NCBI GenBank assembly: GCA_021772565.1
Contig: JAJFLR010000035.1
Coordinates: forward strand, 17,621 to 81,620
DNA: 64,000 bases
Source of the DNA: Opitutales bacterium
Lineage (GTDB): Bacteria > Verrucomicrobiota > Verrucomicrobiia > Opitutales > JAJFLR01
Reading direction: 5' to 3'
Below are positions 1-62,864 of this stretch, piece by piece. Below the pieces are notes generated by a model. It saw nothing but the letters and a program-made list of their open reading frames with translations. It ran no database searches and had not been told where the DNA came from. The first letter of the stretch is position 1. Each line of letters starts with the position of its first letter. The translations under genes and the position numbers were made by a program.

Positions 1-1020
1 CGACTTAAAGTGATGAGTGAGCTCGATATTGCAGAGAGAAGAATACCACAAGATGGTCGTATTGTATTCAAGAAATATACTAAAAAGAATATAGATATTG
101 ATCTTCGTGTTGCTATTGGACCAATGAATTTTGGCGAAAAAGTTTGTATGCGTATTCTCGACAAATCAAAATCAGCACTCCCCATAACGGCACTTGGTTT
201 TTCACAAGAAAATTTAACCAGATATCGTGTTTGTATCGAGCAACCTTATGGAATGCTACTTCACTGCGGCCCAACCGGTTCAGGAAAATCAATGACTTTG
301 TTTTCGGCCTTACGCGAAATTGCATCGCCAGACATTAATATACATACTGCTGAAGATCCAATAGAATATACCATACCTGGCATTAACCAAATGCAAATGC
401 ACAAACAAATCGGGTTAACGTTTGCCGCGGCACTCAGATGTTATCTGCGTATGGATCCTGACATCATCCTTGTGGGAGAGATTAGAGATGAAGAAACAGC
501 GGCGATTGCTATTGAGGCTGCCCTAACTGGTCACTTACTGCTAAGCACTTTGCACACAAACGATGCGCCAAGTACGGTTGCAAGACTATCAGATATGGGC
601 ATTGAACCATTTATGATATCGGCATCACTTCTTGTTGTTTGTGCACAGCGTTTAATGAGACGCGTTTGTAAAAATTGCAAGATGCAATATATTCCAGAGG
701 GAAATGAAAAAGAAATCATAGAAAAAGCTATCGGTTGGAGTGGTGAAATATTTAAAGCAAATGATTCAGGTTGTCCTGCATGTGGTGGTGTCGGTTATAA
801 AGGTCGGACTGGTATACATGAATTAATGACCAACAATGAAGAATTAACAAAAGGTATTAATATAAAAGCTGAGACCGCAGTGCTAAAACGAATTGCAATG
901 AGAACTGACATGAAAACACTTCATCAGGATAGTATGCTTAAAGTAAAAGAAGGCATGTCAACTATGGTAGAAGCACTTTCAAATGTTCCTCCTGACATGA
1001 TTACTGCTGATGGTGAATAA
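1..1020 (+). CDS. GspE/PilB-family secretion/pilus-assembly ATPase, C-terminal ~340 aa (5' end outside window)
   Basis: Frame is open from nt 1 (CGA CTT AAA GTG ATG = [14 protein letters not shown], colinear with [14 protein letters not shown] of the complete paralog at 56859-58574). Walker A GPTGSGKS, Walker [13 protein letters not shown], His box [14 protein letters not shown], tetracysteine CKNC..CPACGG. The track start at GTG 10 is an artefact of the window edge. Confidence 0.9.
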
Positions 1021-53322: not shown

Positions 53323-54942
53323 CTAATCCGATAAATGCTTGGGAAACTTTGATTGCCATCGAGGTTTTAGTCGTAGATAAGAATTTAAAAGCATATTATA
53401 TGCTTTTTTAATATTTTCATCATCAACTTTAGAAGAATCATCTTTATTTACAGTATTCTTTTCAATAGCGGTAGAACTAATAATCCAATAAAATCTTCTA
53501 TCTCTGAGACTTTCAGAACCTTTAAGCCAATTAATAAACCTTCGAGGACTTAAGTCATACGCTTTCCAATCAGTCCCTTCATATGTTGATGATGGACCTC
53601 GTGGGTGAATAAGAGTTGTTAAATATGCAATATCCTTAACATAAAATAAAGCAACTGTCCCTGTATTGGGAGACTTTTGAATATTGAGCCAGATTTCCCC
53701 ATTGGAATTTGCAGCACGTTCAGTCATTTTGGAGTCATTTAACAAATCATATATATCATGAAATAAACCAGCGATATAATAGATTTCTACATCAATTTTA
53801 TTTGTCTCATTTTGATAAGTATATAAACCGTGATTCAGTATTTCCTGATAAGGTGTATCCCAATATAATACTGGATTTTCCATAGGAATGTCTACTTTTA
53901 CTAAATTATAACCAGGAAGATATATTTCTTTTGATAGAGTTTTACTCACATTTCGGTTTCCCGTTTTAAAAAAAAGACCCCCTATAATTATCGTAGATAT
54001 AATTGACCCAATACCTACGAACATAAAAATTTTGTTATGAAATTTCCTTATAGGTTTAAAATCATTTTTAACTTCAACAATTGGGATATCTTTAACAAAA
54101 TAATCTATCAAAAATTTTGAGAAGTATCCAAATACAAGTATCGATGTTGTAGAAAAAATTTGGTTTCCAGAATCTCCATGCCAATAGTGAAATTTATCAT
54201 AGTCATCAACAACAAGCGCAAGTATTGCTACCCTGATACACCCCATAATAAATCCACATAAAATTGCAACTATTGGAAGTTTGATTCTTTCAGATAATTT
54301 TAGTGGAAGCATAATTTCCAACATAAAGACGAGACATAACAATAGTGTGATTATTGGCATACCTGTGCATGGATTTAACACATTAACTGTGCCGTGAGAT
54401 AGCTTTATAACATTTCCAAAACTACCAACTTCATACCCAATATAGTGAAATATAAAAGCAACTGTTTTCGCTGTAAGTATACTAAATGCATCCTCTATGT
54501 TCATGAACTGAACAATTCTGTTTTGGTAGGCAAGAGATACCAATAAGCATAATAAAATAGCCTCACGCCAGAGAATTACCCAGGTACGAAAATTAAATGC
54601 AAGTAGAGTAATCCCAAAAATTCCTAACGCTAATAGTAAACGTGAAAATGCTGCTTCATACCAAAATAAAGTCGCTGATTTAAACAATACAAATTGTAAT
54701 ATCAATAATCCAATTAATCCAAAAATAAAACCACTGTTAAGTGCAATTTTGTTTCGCTTACCCCATAGCAACCAGAAAATTGCTGTCCATAATATTAGTC
54801 TAACTATTATTAAATCATTCCCGACTGGACTTGCTGAATGTCGAAATAGTAAAACTAATTCAAATACAGCATAACTGATTAAAGTTGAAAATAAAAGTTT
54901 TAGCTGAAGTGGCAGCTTTTTTATATATTCAATTTGAGACAT
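53323..54942 (-). CDS. Exosortase-family transpeptidase fused to a C-terminal TM + ~215-aa EpsI-like domain
   Basis: 539 aa. The polytopic N-terminal ~290 aa carries candidate Cys/Arg/His catalytic motifs NVLNPCTGMPIITLLL, GCIRVAILALVV and FHYWHGDSGNQIF. An extra helix (IFMFVGIGSIISTIIIGGLFF) and a soluble domain follow. Confidence 0.65.
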   Translation of the reverse strand: MSQIEYIKKLPLQLKLLFSTLISYAVFELVLLFRHSASPVGNDLIIVRLILWTAIFWLLWGKRNKIALNSGFIFGLIGLLILQFVLFKSATLFWYEAAFSRLLLALGIFGITLLAFNFRTWVILWREAILLCLLVSLAYQNRIVQFMNIEDAFSILTAKTVAFIFHYIGYEVGSFGNVIKLSHGTVNVLNPCTGMPIITLLLCLVFMLEIMLPLKLSERIKLPIVAILCGFIMGCIRVAILALVVDDYDKFHYWHGDSGNQIFSTTSILVFGYFSKFLIDYFVKDIPIVEVKNDFKPIRKFHNKIFMFVGIGSIISTIIIGGLFFKTGNRNVSKTLSKEIYLPGYNLVKVDIPMENPVLYWDTPYQEILNHGLYTYQNETNKIDVEIYYIAGLFHDIYDLLNDSKMTERAANSNGEIWLNIQKSPNTGTVALFYVKDIAYLTTLIHPRGPSSTYEGTDWKAYDLSPRRFINWLKGSESLRDRRFYWIISSTAIEKNTVNKDDSSKVDDENIKKAYNMLLNSYLRLKPRWQSKFPKHLSD

Positions 54943-54959: not shown

Positions 54960-55793
54960 TTATGAACTATGCTTTAATCTTGTCCAAGCAGAAACTTTCC
55001 ACATCCAAATAAATAATATACCAAATAATAGTGCACAAATATTTAATTTGATACTAAATTTTAAAATGTTATTTTTTTCTGACAAAAAGTTGTTTTCCCA
55101 TTGAGTTAATACATTATCTCCATTCTTAATCAGTTCATTTTTTAAAAACAACTTCACAGACTCTATACTTTCGTCAGGTTTAATTTTCATTCTGTCTTGT
55201 AAATTTTTAAGCAAATTTGCCGATGCTGAAATTTGTAAAAGTACATCTTTTGATTCAGCTTCCATAATAACAGTTTCACCTTTTACTATGTTATCACTTA
55301 TTATCGCTCTTTTATTAGTATACTCTTCAGTTTTTGACTTAAACAAACGATCAGTATCTCTAATCCCAAGAGGTATTATCATCAAATATATAACTCCTAA
55401 AACTAAACTTAACCAAGAAATTAATGCCTTTGATTTTAAATTTATAAATGTCATTGTTGGTGGTTTATTGAATAAAATTAATCCAATTCCTGAAAAAGTA
55501 TAAACTGCGATATCAGAAATATTTACCATAACTTCAAATTCCCATTGTGTATTAGTAACATTCAGTGGCCAAATGAGAAAATAGAGCTGTAAAATTGAGT
55601 ACAAAAATAGCCCCCATCCCACTAATGGTAAAATACTGTATGGAATAAACTTTTCCTCTGAATCTTTTTTTACTAAAATTTCTTCATTGAAGTAATCCAA
55701 TATGTTATTGAACCAAGCCATCGATCCGGAATTTCTTTTTAATTTTGAACTTCTTGATCTGGGTTCATCAGAGTAATCTTCATGATCAGTCAT
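54960..55793 (-). CDS. Integral membrane protein of unknown function, adjacent to exosortase
   Basis: 277 aa. Charged N-terminus (MTDHEDYSDEPRSRSSKLKR), about 4 central helices, a coiled-coil-like segment and a C-terminal helix. Its stop lies 17 nt before the exosortase start, downstream on the minus strand. Confidence 0.5.
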   Translation of the reverse strand: MTDHEDYSDEPRSRSSKLKRNSGSMAWFNNILDYFNEEILVKKDSEEKFIPYSILPLVGWGLFLYSILQLYFLIWPLNVTNTQWEFEVMVNISDIAVYTFSGIGLILFNKPPTMTFINLKSKALISWLSLVLGVIYLMIIPLGIRDTDRLFKSKTEEYTNKRAIISDNIVKGETVIMEAESKDVLLQISASANLLKNLQDRMKIKPDESIESVKLFLKNELIKNGDNVLTQWENNFLSEKNNILKFSIKLNICALLFGILFIWMWKVSAWTRLKHSS

Positions 55794-56858: not shown

Positions 56859-58574
56859 TTACTCACCCATATCAGGTGGTACGGCTGATGTAGCTTCCTC
56901 TGTAGTAGTGATTCCTTCCTTAACTTTTAATATGCTGTCTTGGTGTAAAGTCGCCATACCATTTTTAACTGCTATAGTTTTTAAAGCTTCCGTTTCTAGC
57001 CCGGCATTAATTCCCTTAATTAATTCTTTACTAGTCGCCATAAGTTCATGAATCCCAACTCTGCCTTTCATACCAGTACCTCCACAATTTGGACATCCAT
57101 TTTCTTTTGCCTTATATATTTTCCCATTCCAATTGATTGCTCTTTTTATAATCTCCGCTTCGTTGCCCTCAGGAGTATAGGCTACTTTACAAGTTTTACA
57201 AACCCGACGAATTAAGCGTTGAGCACATACACAAACAATTGATGCAGAAATCATAAATGGTTCTACGCTCATATCTGTTAACCGAGAGATTGTCCCTGGT
57301 GCATCATTGGTATGAAGTGTACTAAAAAGCATATGTCCGGTCAACGCAGCCTCAACTGCAATTCCCGCAGTTTCCTGGTCCCTGATTTCCCCTACCAAAA
57401 TAATATCCGGATCTTGTCTTAAATAAGCCCTTAATGCAGCAGCAAATGTTAGACCTATTTTACTATTCATCTGCATCTGGCAGAGACCGGGCAGTGTATA
57501 TTCAATCGGATCTTCGGCGGTACGTATGCAGGTATCAGGTGTGTTTATCTCATTCAGAGCCGAATAGAGCGTCATTGACTTACCAGAACCGGTTGGCCCG
57601 CAATGTAAAACCATCCCGTAAGGACGTTGAATCAGTTCTCTATATAAAGCTAAATTATTCTCAGAAAATCCTAATGCCGGTAGTGGCAAAGTACTTTTTT
57701 GTTTATCAAGAATACGCATCACACATCCTTCCCCATGATTAAGAGGGGCTGTTGAAACACGCAAATCAACATCAATACCCTTTTTATTAAATTGCTTAAA
57801 TATTATTCGGCCGTCCTGAGGTAAACGCTTTTGGGCAATATCAAGATTGGCCATAACTTTCAGACGTGCCATTAGTGCACCCGTTACTTTTGACGGTAAA
57901 ATTAATTTTTCCATCAACACACCATCAACTCTAACACGAACTCTTGCAGTAATTTCAAATGGTTCAATATGAATATCACTTCCACCTGAATAGTAAGCCT
58001 CTTCAATAATTCGGTTTGCCAGTTGAATAATTGGAGCTGACTCTTCTTCTAGCTGGTCTTCGTCAATACCATCTTCAGAGTCATCAGATATATTCAACTG
58101 ATCGACTACATCTCCAAATCCAATCTCTTGATGTCCCTCATCTTTAACTTTTAAATTTTTATCGATGTCCTTCTCAAGAGCAAGAAGTGTTGAAACTTTA
58201 AGTTTAGTTAATTCGTGAACTTTATTAGTAACAGCAGAATTAAATGGATTTGACAATGCGATGACAATGAAACTTCCAACAGTACCTACGGGCAAAATTT
58301 TATTTTCAATACAAAATTCGCGTTCCAATTTTTCGAATGTACGTTCATCAACTTTAAAATTGCTGGCATTAAATGGACTTAAATTAAATGCTTTACTTTT
58401 AGCTACTAAAATTTGGAAGTCATTCAAATTATACTCCTCAATCAGGAGTTTTTCCATCTCATCTCCCGACAATTCATTGGTAGTATTTTTTATATCTTTA
58501 GTTCGATCATCCGAAAGCAGTCCGAGTTCATTCAGTTTATTAATTATAGATGTTTGAATTCGAGCGAGAGCCAT
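56859..58574 (-). CDS. GspE/PilB-family secretion/pilus-assembly ATPase, full length with T2SSE_N-type N-terminal domain
   Basis: 571 aa. [47 protein letters not shown]. The N-terminal 140 aa have the T2SSE_N pattern ([23 protein letters not shown]). Confidence 0.9.
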
Positions 58575-58591
58575 AAATTATTTTTTTATTT

Positions 58592-59101
58592 CTAGGATGA
58601 TACTTTATTTTTATTATCAATCATATGTTCAGATAATTGTTCTAACATCAGTCCAATATTGGAAATATCTGAAACATACCAGATAATATCGCCATTAAGT
58701 TTTTCTTCCCAAAATTTTCTGACATATGGACTCAAATAATATGCAGAGCTAATAAAATAATATCCACTCACAAAGTCAAATGGAATTGACCACGTGGCCC
58801 AACAATCTTCAACATCAATAGTTAAGAGTGTATTTTGATCTAAATTATAACTCGGCAAAAAACAATACCCCAAGTCTAATTCTTCGATTTGATATTCAAT
58901 CAATTTTGTTTCATTTAAAACCTGAAGATCAAATAGTAGACATTTTAATAGTGATGCTTCTTTAATATCAGTTGATCTCAATTTCTTCATTAACGACAAA
59001 TTAGCTGATTCAAGATCTGATATTTTTATCAAATTAGAATCAACAAGTTGAGAGCCCAATGTGCGATTTGATTTTAGTAGTAGTCCTTTTGTGTTATTCA
59101 T
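58592..59101 (-). CDS. Stand-alone T2SSE_N/MshEN-like domain protein
   Basis: 169 aa. RTLGSQLVDSNLIKISDLESANLSL resembles the start of GspE N-terminal domains. ..CWATWSIPFDFVSGYYFISSAYYLSP.. fits the beta-strand core. Its stop lies 17 nt before the ATPase start, downstream on the minus strand. Confidence 0.45.
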   Translation of the reverse strand: MNNTKGLLLKSNRTLGSQLVDSNLIKISDLESANLSLMKKLRSTDIKEASLLKCLLFDLQVLNETKLIEYQIEELDLGYCFLPSYNLDQNTLLTIDVEDCWATWSIPFDFVSGYYFISSAYYLSPYVRKFWEEKLNGDIIWYVSDISNIGLMLEQLSEHMIDNKNKVSS

Positions 59102-59303
59102 AATTATTCCCCCTATTAGCGTTATTAAGTATCAGATATTATAATTAAATTTGATCTTCAAATTCAATAATCAGTATAACTAATGAATGGAAAAATTCAA
59201 CGTGACTCCAATCAAAATCTTGGTAAAAAAATATAAATTTTTTAAAATAAGACTGCAAAAAATTAGCTTATAAATTAACATTAAAACTCTTGTTAATACG
59301 CGG

Positions 59304-59340
59304 TTAAAAAAATTGAACTACAACTATTTCAATCTTTTTA
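59304..59340 (-). terminator. Candidate AT-rich intrinsic terminator after the bilin-reductase-like gene
   Basis: Minus strand just after the stop reads AAAAAGATTGAA-ATAGTTGTAG-TTCAATTTTTTT (ATTGAA/TTCAAT stem followed by a T run). The stem is weak and AT-only. Confidence 0.3.
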
Positions 59341-59342
59341 AA

Positions 59343-60035
59343 CTAAGTAAATAAGTATTTTGAAAGGAAAGTATTAGCCCATTTATTTCCAAATTTTTTA
59401 TATAACAGAGGAAGTCCCGGGCTATTTATTTTATGATGCTTTTTATAGTTATTAATTGAATTGAAATTTTCTTTGATAGAAGAAATATTTAAAGGTGAAG
59501 CAGATGAAAGAATGTTAATATAATCGTGAAGTAAATCTGGTAAAAATTCATTTAAAATAAATATTTCATTCAAATTTTCAGGTCTAATAAATAGATCATT
59601 ACCAGACCTACATTCTAAATACCAGTCAGGCATTTTATCACTATATGATATTGCTGAATATTTAGTCTTATACTTTATTAAAATTTCTTTGGCTGTTGCG
59701 GCAACAATAGGAGACACAAGTATTGGTTTTATATCTATAACTGCGACGATAGGTTTGGCACCAAAGACAACAAACTCCATTGCAAATATGGGAATATTCC
59801 AATCTGCATTTGGGAAAAAGAAAATATTAATTATATCCAAATTTTTCGAGCTGATATTAACCAATCGAAATTCTCCTTTATTGAGAAAATTATAAAATGC
59901 TGCTGATAAAATTATTTCAGACCTATTTCCTCCTACAACTTTTGTTGAATACTCTGATGGTAGTTTAATTTCGAGACCACCTGTTTCAATAATCAAAGAT
60001 ATACAGTGATCGAGCAATTTTTTGAATAGACACAT
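59343..60035 (-). CDS. Ferredoxin-dependent bilin reductase family homologue (PcyA-like, divergent)
   Basis: 230 aa, colinear by eye with Synechocystis PcyA. [25 protein letters not shown] vs [34 protein letters not shown] vs VSAAIADLSP. LFIRPEN vs [25 protein letters not shown] vs LEKAFGEAWAERYMSQVLF. Confidence 0.75.
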   Translation of the reverse strand: [230 protein letters not shown]

Positions 60036-60092
60036 ATATAAATATGAATGAATCTTGATTTCTGATTATTAAATCAATTAACAGTTAATTAA

Positions 60093-62864
60093 CTAGTTAA
60101 TATTTTCTAACAATCTTTTAAATTCATTGTATTTTAAATTTGCTTCAGCATGTTGCTTTTTTGCCCCTTCAACAATATGTACAGGAGCTTTGTTTATAAA
60201 TTTATTGTCGTTTAATTTATTTTCTCCAGCCAGAATTATTTTTTCCAGCTTAGTAAGTTCTTTTTTCAATCTAAGTATTTCCGATTCAGTATCGATTGAT
60301 TCTGCAAGATCTAAATAAAGCGTTCCCAACTTGGTAACCGCGGCAGGAATCTCTTTCTCTATTTTATCTTGAAGGCATAATGAAGATGCGCCGGCTAGTT
60401 TTTGAAATGTTTCTTGATTTGACTCAATAAAGCTAACGTTGCATTTTTCCGGGACTATTATAAACTTAACATCATTTTTTCCCGCCAACTTATTTGCAGC
60501 TTTTAATGAACGTGCATTCACTACAAGTTCCTTCAAATATTCCACATGCTTAATAGATTTCGCGTCTAATATTATATCGTTCGCCAAGAAACTATTTATT
60601 AATTGTTGATGACTCTCAATCTCGCAACTAGAAATTGTTTTCTCATTATTTTTATAACTAAGTAACTCCCATAATTCATCAGTAATATGAGGCGTAATTG
60701 GATTAATCAACATGAGCACTTGTCTGATGATCAAATCCTGTATTGCCAAACAATTATCTATCTTTGACTCCATCTGTAATTTAGTTTTTGAAACCTCCAC
60801 ATACCAGTCACAGAAATCACCCCAAAAAAATGTATGCAATAATTGAGTTAACAAGTTAAACTCGTATGAGTTGTAAGCATTATCTATGTCATTGATTAAT
60901 TGAATTAAGCGGGATAATATCCAATGATCATAGTCATCAAAACAACCTGGTTCAATTCGCTGAATAATTGATTCGATACTGCTGTTATCATACATCGATC
61001 CGCTCATTTGACGAAAACGACAAGCATTCCACAATTTATTACAAAAATTTCTCCCTAATGTTATTCTATCGTCACTAAATAAAATATCCTGTCCTTTGGG
61101 AGCTATGCTCATAATACCAAACCGCAAACCATCTGCTCCAAATTTTTCGATTAAATCTAAAGGATCTGGAGAATTACCAAGTGATTTTGACATCTTTCGG
61201 CCTTTAATGTCTCTAATAATACCAGTAAAATAGACATTTCTAAAAGGTATACGTTTATTCAAATCAGTTTCAGTTAACGGAGATTTTGAATCTTCTATAT
61301 CTAAATCAGTACCCTCACCCATAAATTCCAAACCAGCCATAATCATCCGTGCGACCCAAAAGAAAATAATGTCAGGGCCGGTAACTAAATCTGTTGTCGG
61401 ATAAAAATATTCGAGGCCCAGTTTTTTTATTTCTTTAGATTCCGGCCAACCCATTGTAGCAAATGGCCAAAGCCAGGATGATGCCCATGTATCGAGCACA
61501 TCATCATCTTGTTCCCAATTTTCAGGATCAGATGGACCATCAATTGAAATATGCCAGTTTGATTTAATTTTTCGATCACACCCCTTTTTATACCAAACAG
61601 GAATTCTGTGTCCCCACCAAAGTTGTCTGGAAATACACCAGTCTTGAATATTATCAAGCCAGTGAAGATAAGTCTTTTCCCAACGTTTAGGCCAAAATTT
61701 AATATACCCGTCTTTGACGACTCGTTTTGCCTCTTCTACCTTTGGGTATTTGAGAAACCATTGCTCTGAAATACGTGGCTCTATAGGCACATTTCCACGT
61801 TCAGAATAACCAACATTATTTTCATATTCTTCTTTATCTATCAGTAACTCCAAATCATCCAGTTTATCGACAGCTAGTTTTCGCGCCTTAAAACGATCCA
61901 ATCCATTGAAATCTTCACCAGCCAATTCATTTAAAGTAGCATCAGGATTAAAAACATCAATTACCGGTAAATTATGTCGAATACCAATTTCAAAATCCAT
62001 TGAATCATGAGCAGGTGTAACTTTCAGAACACCCGTTCCAAAATCTTGGTCGACTGCTTCATCAGCAATAATTGGAATTTTTTCTTTTGGAAACGGTCTC
62101 CATATCTGCTGACCAATATATTGCTTATAACGGTTATCTTCAGGATTTACGGCAACAGCAGTATCCCCCATAATTGTTTCTGGTCGAGTGGTAGATATCT
62201 CCAAATATTTTCCTGGTGTATCGACAAGCTCGTAACGCATCTTATAAAAGATTCCTTTTTGAGGTTTCATGATAACTTCTTCATCACTCAGGGCGGTAAG
62301 GCTAACTGGACACCAGTTTACCATTCGTTTACCTCTGTATATATAACCACGCTCATACAGTTTAACAAAGGCAGTTAAAACAGCCTTAGAGTATTTTTCA
62401 TCCAATGTGAAAACATTACGATTCCAATCACAAGAGGCACCTAACTTGTTAAGCTGATCGAGAATGATTCCGCCATGTTTTTCCTTCCATTTCCAAACAT
62501 GTTGAAGAAATTTTTGACGGCCTAAATCATGTCGATTCTTTCCTTCATCCTTTTTTAATACTTTTTCAACTTTAGTTTGTGTAGCTATACCAGCATGATC
62601 TGTTCCCGGCAACCACATTACTGACTTACCTTTTAAGCGTGCTCTTCGAGCAAGTATATCCTGAATTGTATTATTCAGAACATGTCCCATAGTAAGAATG
62701 CCAGTTACATTTGGGGGCGGAATTACAATACTGTATGATTCGCGATTTTTATCAATTTTTCCTGCAAAAATATTATTCGATAGCCAAATTTCACGCCACT
62801 TTGGCTCAACTTGTTTAGGATCGTATGCTTTATGAATTTCAGTCATATTTTGTCGTTGAATCAA
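60093..62864 (-). CDS. valS: Valine--tRNA ligase
   Basis: 923 aa. PPPNVTGILTMGHVLNNTIQD (HIGH-type), GRKMSKSLGNSPDP (KMSKS), and a C-terminal coiled coil. The true start may be the ATG 18 nt downstream (MTEIHKAYDP). Confidence 0.95.
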   Translation of the reverse strand: MIQRQNMTEIHKAYDPKQVEPKWREIWLSNNIFAGKIDKNRESYSIVIPPPNVTGILTMGHVLNNTIQDILARRARLKGKSVMWLPGTDHAGIATQTKVEKVLKKDEGKNRHDLGRQKFLQHVWKWKEKHGGIILDQLNKLGASCDWNRNVFTLDEKYSKAVLTAFVKLYERGYIYRGKRMVNWCPVSLTALSDEEVIMKPQKGIFYKMRYELVDTPGKYLEISTTRPETIMGDTAVAVNPEDNRYKQYIGQQIWRPFPKEKIPIIADEAVDQDFGTGVLKVTPAHDSMDFEIGIRHNLPVIDVFNPDATLNELAGEDFNGLDRFKARKLAVDKLDDLELLIDKEEYENNVGYSERGNVPIEPRISEQWFLKYPKVEEAKRVVKDGYIKFWPKRWEKTYLHWLDNIQDWCISRQLWWGHRIPVWYKKGCDRKIKSNWHISIDGPSDPENWEQDDDVLDTWASSWLWPFATMGWPESKEIKKLGLEYFYPTTDLVTGPDIIFFWVARMIMAGLEFMGEGTDLDIEDSKSPLTETDLNKRIPFRNVYFTGIIRDIKGRKMSKSLGNSPDPLDLIEKFGADGLRFGIMSIAPKGQDILFSDDRITLGRNFCNKLWNACRFRQMSGSMYDNSSIESIIQRIEPGCFDDYDHWILSRLIQLINDIDNAYNSYEFNLLTQLLHTFFWGDFCDWYVEVSKTKLQMESKIDNCLAIQDLIIRQVLMLINPITPHITDELWELLSYKNNEKTISSCEIESHQQLINSFLANDIILDAKSIKHVEYLKELVVNARSLKAANKLAGKNDVKFIIVPEKCNVSFIESNQETFQKLAGASSLCLQDKIEKEIPAAVTKLGTLYLDLAESIDTESEILRLKKELTKLEKIILAGENKLNDNKFINKAPVHIVEGAKKQHAEANLKYNEFKRLLENIN

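Follow-up and report, generated by a model that had tools for sequence, protein, structure and literature searches.

We analysed a 64,000-nucleotide stretch of contig JAJFLR010000035.1 from an Opitutales genome assembly (GCA_021772565.1; the whole 64-kb stretch is referred to here as the window) that carries a gene for an FDBR (ferredoxin-dependent bilin reductase). The gene occupies 59343..60035 on the minus strand, opens with ATG and encodes a protein of 230 amino acids that we place in the pre-1 type of pre-PcyA reductases. On one side of it is valS, and on the other are an intergenic gap, an open reading frame (ORF) of 169 codons and a gene for a secretion-type ATPase.

Both profile and structural comparisons identify the protein. 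Pfam PF05996 (Fe_bilin_red) matches residues 23–229 over profile positions 17–227/228 with 72.8 bits (E = 4.4e-20; gathering cut-off, 31 bits), and a sequence search of the PDB returned PcyA of Synechocystis and Nostoc at the top, with E values of about 1e-8. An AlphaFold2 model, built from a 17-sequence alignment, has a mean pLDDT of 94.1, a pTM of 0.91 and no disordered segments, and shows the alpha/beta/alpha sandwich common to PcyA, PebA, PebB, PebS and HY2. The best Foldseek matches of this model in the PDB are all FDBRs (PebB, TM 0.87; PcyA, 0.83–0.85; PebA, 0.83; HY2, 0.82), followed by RCCR at about 0.7 and then coproporphyrinogen oxidase. The profile and fold matches therefore leave no room for a chance resemblance, and the 230-residue protein is a genuine FDBR homologue, as an initial annotation made from the sequence had proposed. 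It scores well below the cut-offs of the NCBIfam equivalog models for PcyA (NF002760; 60.4 bits, cut-off 206) and for PebA and PebB (20–51 bits, cut-offs 263–327).

We read residue equivalences from a HMMER alignment to PcyA and from a MAFFT alignment of 172 sequences, comprising 171 relatives and Synechocystis PcyA, the last of which was checked to be identical to 2d1e_A. The PcyA triad Glu76/His88/Asp105 appears in the window protein as Ser62, Asn70 and Glu87. Asn70 (codon AAT, 59826..59828, minus strand) stands at the position of PcyA His88 and of Asn74 in the Opitutales enzyme MCC5789364 (PMC13446030, Table 2), Glu87 (GAG, 59775..59777, minus strand) at that of PcyA Asp105 and MCC5789364 Glu91, and PcyA Glu76 falls on Ser62, with a four-residue gap alongside. 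To these can be added Ser205 (AGC, 59421..59423, minus strand), which corresponds to PcyA Asp220, HY2 Asp256 and MCC5789364 Ser202 (PMC13446030, Table 2). The initial annotation had already called Asn70, Glu87 and a four-residue deletion in the Glu76 region; the two substitutions recur in both alignments and the deletion in the MAFFT alignment.

These changes are real, but they are not peculiar to this protein, and in this the initial annotation needs refining. Three pre-PcyA lineages have been defined in non-oxygenic bacteria, and the PcyA catalytic residues are missing from pre-1 (Rockwell, Martin and Lagarias 2023, PMC10151467). Frascogna et al. (2026, PMC13446030) describe pre-1 proteins as typically having Glu in place of Asp105, Asn or Thr in place of His88 and Ser in place of HY2-Asp256; in pre-2, pre-3, PcyA and PcyX the 105 position is Asp (PMC13446030). 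The window protein carries every one of the pre-1 residues and, like the lineage, has no conserved Glu76. Among its relatives, Glu in the Asp105 column is invariant in a 17-sequence family alignment (A1) and present in about 95% of the 171 sequences, and the His88 column holds mostly Asn, Thr or Ser. Asn70/Glu87/Ser205 is the ordinary, lineage-wide signature of the described pre-1 group, including members from the same bacterial class (PMC10151467, PMC13446030). The ‘altered proton-donor chemistry’ that had been suggested for the protein is likewise chemistry already characterised for a purified pre-1 enzyme from Opitutales.

Relatives were collected in several ways. Exhaustive searching by profile yielded 787 representatives at E ≤ 1e-3, of which 99 reached E ≤ 1e-30. 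When the family alignment was used to scan the species genomes in GTDB, 28 loci emerged, distributed over Opitutia/Verrucomicrobiota and Gammaproteobacteria. Both pre-1 enzymes that have been studied are among these 28: that of Methylovulum psychrotolerans Sph1 (POZ53557) and the one on scaffold JAFIGF010000120. We identified the latter as MCC5789364 by the scaffold name and by residue numbering; its ORF has Ala63, Asn74, Glu91 and Ser202, the same residues as published for the active site of MCC5789364 (PMC13446030). The window protein is 34% identical to MCC5789364 (E = 2.7e-38), 28% identical to the Methylovulum enzyme (E = 4.8e-41) and 24.6% identical to Synechocystis PcyA (E = 1.4e-15), and its Asn70, Glu87 and Ser205 match the MCC5789364 signature exactly. 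By E-value the protein is thus nearer to the pre-1 references than to PcyA, and the link to pre-PcyA lineages that the initial annotation foresaw is borne out. In a neighbour-joining tree with 100 bootstraps, the window protein falls with the two references in an unresolved group away from PcyA, and the deep nodes are unsupported.

The same tree contains a lower-scoring clade of 53 FDBR-like proteins (P0105–P0164; bootstrap 74). Most share the Asn/Glu signature and have Ser or Thr in the Asp220 column. In many, the gene call adds an N-terminal extension of 30–80 residues; a Planctomycetota annotation is attached to one cluster, and P0147, one of the representatives, is a fusion protein of 1,068 amino acids.

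Conservation extends well beyond the active site. None of the 25 invariant residues of A1 has been lost from the window protein, which also agrees with the relatives in 17 of the 18 columns where conservation among the 171 sequences is at least 85%; this retention argues against decay of the gene. Its amino-acid composition is the most AT-biased in the family, with F, Y, M, I, N and K making up 44% of the residues. Such a composition, the lack of any partner gene within 64 kb and the trace activity in vivo of another pre-1 enzyme (PMC13446030) could fit a non-catalytic remnant, or a pseudo-enzyme that only binds bilin, left behind in a reduced, AT-rich genome after loss of its gene cluster. 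We regard this as very improbable, given a reading frame that is intact and full length, the conserved columns just described and a very confidently predicted fold without disorder. The gene also matches its neighbours in composition, with a GC content at third codon positions (GC3) of 0.21 against their 0.19–0.30, which suggests long residence in a genome that has kept the gene intact.

We consider it likely, chiefly by analogy with MCC5789364, that the gene encodes a functional FDBR of the pre-1 lineage that would reduce the A-ring of biliverdin by two electrons and so form phytochromobilin. Purified MCC5789364, which comes from an Opitutales metagenome-assembled genome (MAG), converts biliverdin to 3E-phytochromobilin, and its E91Q variant is still active, with the product switched to the 3Z isomer (PMC13446030). 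Our analysis itself shows the family and fold, the signature residues and their conservation, the host taxon and the gene context; from that work we infer the substrate, the product and the role of Glu87 in the window protein. Biliverdin IX-alpha would occupy the pocket at the centre of the alpha/beta/alpha sandwich, two electrons would be taken from a [2Fe-2S] ferredoxin and the A-ring diene would be reduced, probably giving the 3E isomer of phytochromobilin as in MCC5789364. Glu87, at the PcyA Asp105 site, may influence both proton delivery and the stereochemistry of the product. The 18-vinyl group would not be reduced, and no phycocyanobilin would be made, because the equivalents of Glu76 and His88 are missing.

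Comparison with known enzymes places the protein closest to the two studied pre-1 reductases, with which it shares family, fold, active-site signature and a length class of about 230 residues; the host of MCC5789364 also belongs to the same bacterial class as the window genome, and Verrucomicrobia are among the listed pre-1 hosts (PMC13446030). It differs from both in its strongly AT-biased composition, in being at most 41% identical to any relative and in its position outside the cluster of heme oxygenase, Fe-S, V4R, BBAG, V4R and, in some cases, kinase genes, with no partner within 64 kb. PcyA (Synechocystis slr0116, PDB 2D1E) has the same sandwich fold, an acidic residue at the Asp105 position and, like the window protein, a C-terminal FG..W....LF motif and an FIRP motif. 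The two are only 20–25% identical, however, and the window protein lacks Glu76 and His88, has Glu for Asp105 and is expected to perform the two-electron A-ring reduction only, without producing phycocyanobilin.

[quoted passage not shown] They differ from it in having Asp rather than Glu at position 105 (position 88 is Asn in pre-2 and Thr in pre-3) and in being largely confined to Myxococcota. A B12-binding protein and a globin are also associated with pre-2, and the window contains neither. The plant phytochromobilin synthase HY2 resembles the window protein in fold (TM 0.82) and in the reaction predicted for the latter, in which biliverdin takes up two electrons at its A-ring and becomes phytochromobilin. 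It belongs to the PebB/HY2 branch, however, uses Asp residues (Asp256) and forms the 3Z isomer as opposed to the 3E isomer of pre-1.

Several points weigh against this assignment of lineage and function. The protein has diverged far: when 5.8 billion protein clusters were searched through a word index, no more than 17 relatives came back, and the best of them is 41% identical. In the neighbour-joining tree its position is unresolved, with only 31% support for its nearest neighbours, and the tree contains no pre-2 or pre-3 sequences; strict membership of the pre-1 clade is therefore something that we infer from signature and similarity, and that the tree does not prove. POZ53557, the earliest pre-1 enzyme to be assayed, showed very little activity (PMC13446030), and the regiospecificity of FDBRs is poorly predictable from sequence (PMC13193486, PMC13446030). 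Finally, the 64-kb window is without heme oxygenase, ferredoxin, V4R and BBAG genes, so neither a source of the substrate nor an acceptor for the bilin is visible.

This last point sets the gene apart from most of its relatives. In about 20 of them the FDBR gene comes last in a conserved cluster that comprises genes for a Fer2 Fe-S protein, a V4R protein, an unknown protein, a BBAG protein (PF00502), a second V4R protein, a Ser/Thr kinase and one or two small unknown proteins; a PP2C phosphatase gene often follows the FDBR gene, and a heme oxygenase gene is sometimes nearby. The Fe-S/V4R/BBAG/V4R/kinase arrangement is present at both characterised pre-1 loci. By contrast, Pfam scans of all window ORFs of at least 100 amino acids, with a lenient rescan of the unmatched ORFs, found no heme oxygenase, globin, V4R, Fer2 or GAF/PHY domain in the window, and a tblastn search with 28 cluster proteins of two loci (L002 and L003) against its six frames matched the FDBR gene alone. 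Both searches agree with the statement in the initial annotation that the window is without a heme oxygenase, phytochrome/GAF or phycobiliprotein-like gene. The 169-residue ORF was considered as kin of the small proteins encoded upstream of the FDBR gene in relatives, and tblastn found no similarity. A position apart from its usual partner genes is thus what distinguishes the window gene. The typical pre-1 location was not found within the 64 kb, but this context is typical rather than strictly defining, and pre-1 clusters are variable, with some genes lying at a distance (PMC10151467). To look for partners elsewhere in the genome we used a profile of V4R-A, a very strongly conserved protein of the cluster; among the best 120 of 1,004 matches, none was AT-biased enough to stand out, and two candidates that were checked came from other samples.

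Detached FDBR genes also occur in Thiotrichales and Thiomargarita MAGs, and these are the closest relatives of the window protein (40–41% identity). The copies at L004 (10001–14393) and L010 (9875–12146) adjoin genes of the CheB-methylesterase/CheR type, and L004 also has a response-regulator PAS-GGDEF protein. Such surroundings, together with the separation of the window gene from all cluster partners, its long branch (≤41% identity to any relative) and the fact that single substitutions can switch FDBR products (PMC13446030), would fit a pre-1-like reductase whose job has changed since it left the cluster, so that it makes another product (for example, the four-electron product phycoerythrobilin), acts on another tetrapyrrole or delivers to an acceptor other than BBAG. 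We think such a change unlikely, as the protein keeps all family-invariant residues and the Asn/Glu/Ser signature, and published pre-1 clusters are themselves sometimes split across the genome (PMC10151467). Nor do the detached copies define a distinct orphan sublineage that includes the window protein: those of Thiotrichales and Thiomargarita form a clade of their own (bootstrap 90) without it. We give little credence to the prospect of a pre-1 reductase that is independent of the cluster, with the low-GC Opitutia genome entirely devoid of BBAG/V4R/Fe-S clusters.

The clusters of the relatives show further features of their own. Nearly all of the pre-1 clusters collected, both reference loci included, have a Ser/Thr kinase gene (PF00069) after the second V4R gene and before that of the FDBR (L002 7652–9433; L003 7618–9378 and 10654–11490; L006, L011, L013, L015–L022, L024–L030, L033 and L034). 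In the main text of PMC10151467 and PMC13446030, ‘kinase’ appears only in the title of a reference on SpkG (Synechocystis slr0144–0152 cluster). The presence of the kinase in nearly all clusters, and the frequency of the PP2C gene, suggest that control by phosphorylation was an ancestral part of the pre-1 cluster. In the Verrucomicrobiota MAG that contains L003, the pre-1 cluster is followed, about 3 kb downstream, by a bacteriorhodopsin-family gene (PF01036; 13637–14365) with a polyprenyl synthase gene near it, and two different light-related pigment systems are therefore adjacent there. A variant cluster (L036, 222–5612) has the order Fer2, V4R, unknown, PAS, PAS, BBAG, V4R, with two PAS proteins between V4R and BBAG. 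The FDBR genes at L023 (9899–10627) and L025 (9932–10627) are sisters with bootstrap 100; a full cluster lies upstream in L025 and unrelated sequence in L023, the MAG of which is labelled ‘Akkermansia sp.’, a difference that may reflect mis-assembly or recent rearrangement.

Around the window gene itself, valS (valine–tRNA ligase; 60093..62864, minus strand; Pfam tRNA-synt_1, Anticodon_1 and Val_tRNA-synt_C) is the upstream neighbour and the first gene of the minus-strand string. From the valS stop to the reductase start there are 57 nt (60036..60092, minus strand) in which a terminator scan called nothing, and co-transcription of the reductase gene with valS is possible. Downstream, an AT-rich gap of 241 nt (59102..59342, minus strand) separates the reductase from the 169-residue ORF. 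RNA folding places an AU-only hairpin with a U-rich 3′ arm directly 3′ of the reductase stop (59304..59341, minus strand). The gap and the ‘terminator-like’ hairpin of the initial annotation are therefore real, but a GC-dependent scan found no canonical intrinsic terminator 3′ of the gene, the hairpin being too GC-poor for a call, and the gap as a whole folds no better than shuffled sequence (z = −1.08). The hairpin is possibly a weak intrinsic terminator. The best sigma-70-like match of the region (59167–59138; 10 of 12 positions) also lies in this gap, and promoter-like matches across the region do not exceed those in shuffled sequence. The reductase gene may be transcribed with valS or from a promoter of its own. 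On the 5′ side of valS there is a divergent intergenic region and then a plus-strand TPR gene from 63110, which implies that the partner cluster does not lie just beyond the visible minus-strand string. Conserved valS–FDBR synteny was considered and rejected, as the two genomes with the closest valyl-tRNA synthetases (ValRS; 64% identity) have no FDBR gene beside valS. The valS ORF was called from a TTG as 923 amino acids, the database copy has 917 and the true start is probably an ATG six codons downstream.

The window as a whole has about 34% GC and is without tRNA genes. Nearly all of it is taken up by one polysaccharide and nonulosonic-acid sugar locus of about 45 kb on the minus strand (2297–54942), with many glycosyltransferases, four DegT-type aminotransferases, NeuB and a cytidylyltransferase of the nonulosonic-acid pathway, a sulfotransferase, a carbamoyltransferase, an MBOAT protein, and heparinase II/III-like and DUF4838 proteins. 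Pfam scans placed an exosortase EpsH at 53323–54942 and an HpsJ-like protein at 54960–55793, both on the minus strand. The window also contains panB and two T2SSE-type ATPases: a T2SSE/MshEN protein of 571 amino acids (56859–58574, minus strand) and a second T2SSE ORF at the far left end (10–1020, plus strand). Directly upstream of the former is the 169-residue ORF (58592–59101, minus strand), for which Pfam gives no match, even with the threshold relaxed to E = 1. Of the ‘pilus/secretion ATPase pair’ described in the initial annotation next to the reductase, the 571-residue protein is indeed an ATPase of this kind, and the 169-residue ORF has no family match.

A different origin for the contig, cyanobacterial or phage, or a recent horizontal import of the gene, can be judged against this background. 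In its favour, the closest FDBR relatives are in another phylum (Thiotrichales, 40% identity), and the two genomes nearest by ValRS do not share the gene's position beside valS. All named relatives of the window ValRS at 60–65% identity, however, are Opitutia or other Verrucomicrobiota (Opitutales, Opitutae, Opitutus, Puniceicoccaceae, Coraliomargarita, Pelagicoccus and Verrucomicrobia), which upholds the earlier view of a non-cyanobacterial genome of the Planctomycetes–Verrucomicrobia–Chlamydiae type. Pfam scans of the window ORFs of at least 100 amino acids found no phage genes, the polysaccharide/exosortase locus is coherent and accompanied by housekeeping genes, and four sequencing runs (SRR15505516–19) yielded this locus in independent assemblies. 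Together with GC3 values of the reductase gene that equal those of its neighbours, and with equivalog scores for PcyA, PebA and PebB far under their cut-offs, these results effectively refute a foreign origin. From the ValRS kinship, the lack of phage genes, the matching GC3 and the four-run assembly, the genome is therefore that of a low-GC member of the Opitutia (Verrucomicrobiota), and neither a cyanobacterium nor a phage.

Pre-PcyA proteins have been proposed as ancestors of the enzyme with which cyanobacteria form their light-harvesting pigment. What this gene adds is modest: it is highly divergent (≤41% identity), AT bias has driven its composition to an extreme, and it stands apart from the partner cluster. 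In other respects it joins a family that earlier work has described and characterised biochemically. That a very divergent, AT-rich member of the Opitutia keeps the full pre-1 signature shows how robust this signature is. If the gene does prove to be a true orphan, in a genome without the cluster, it would serve a purpose different from that proposed for pre-1 clusters, such as the disposal of heme-derived biliverdin, the supply of an unrecognised bilin-binding sensor or the production of a different bilin. It would then also show an FDBR gene uncoupled from its ancestral partners, as pcyA is in cyanobacteria, and a complete genome without the cluster would offer a natural test of whether pre-1 reductases work without BBAG partners.

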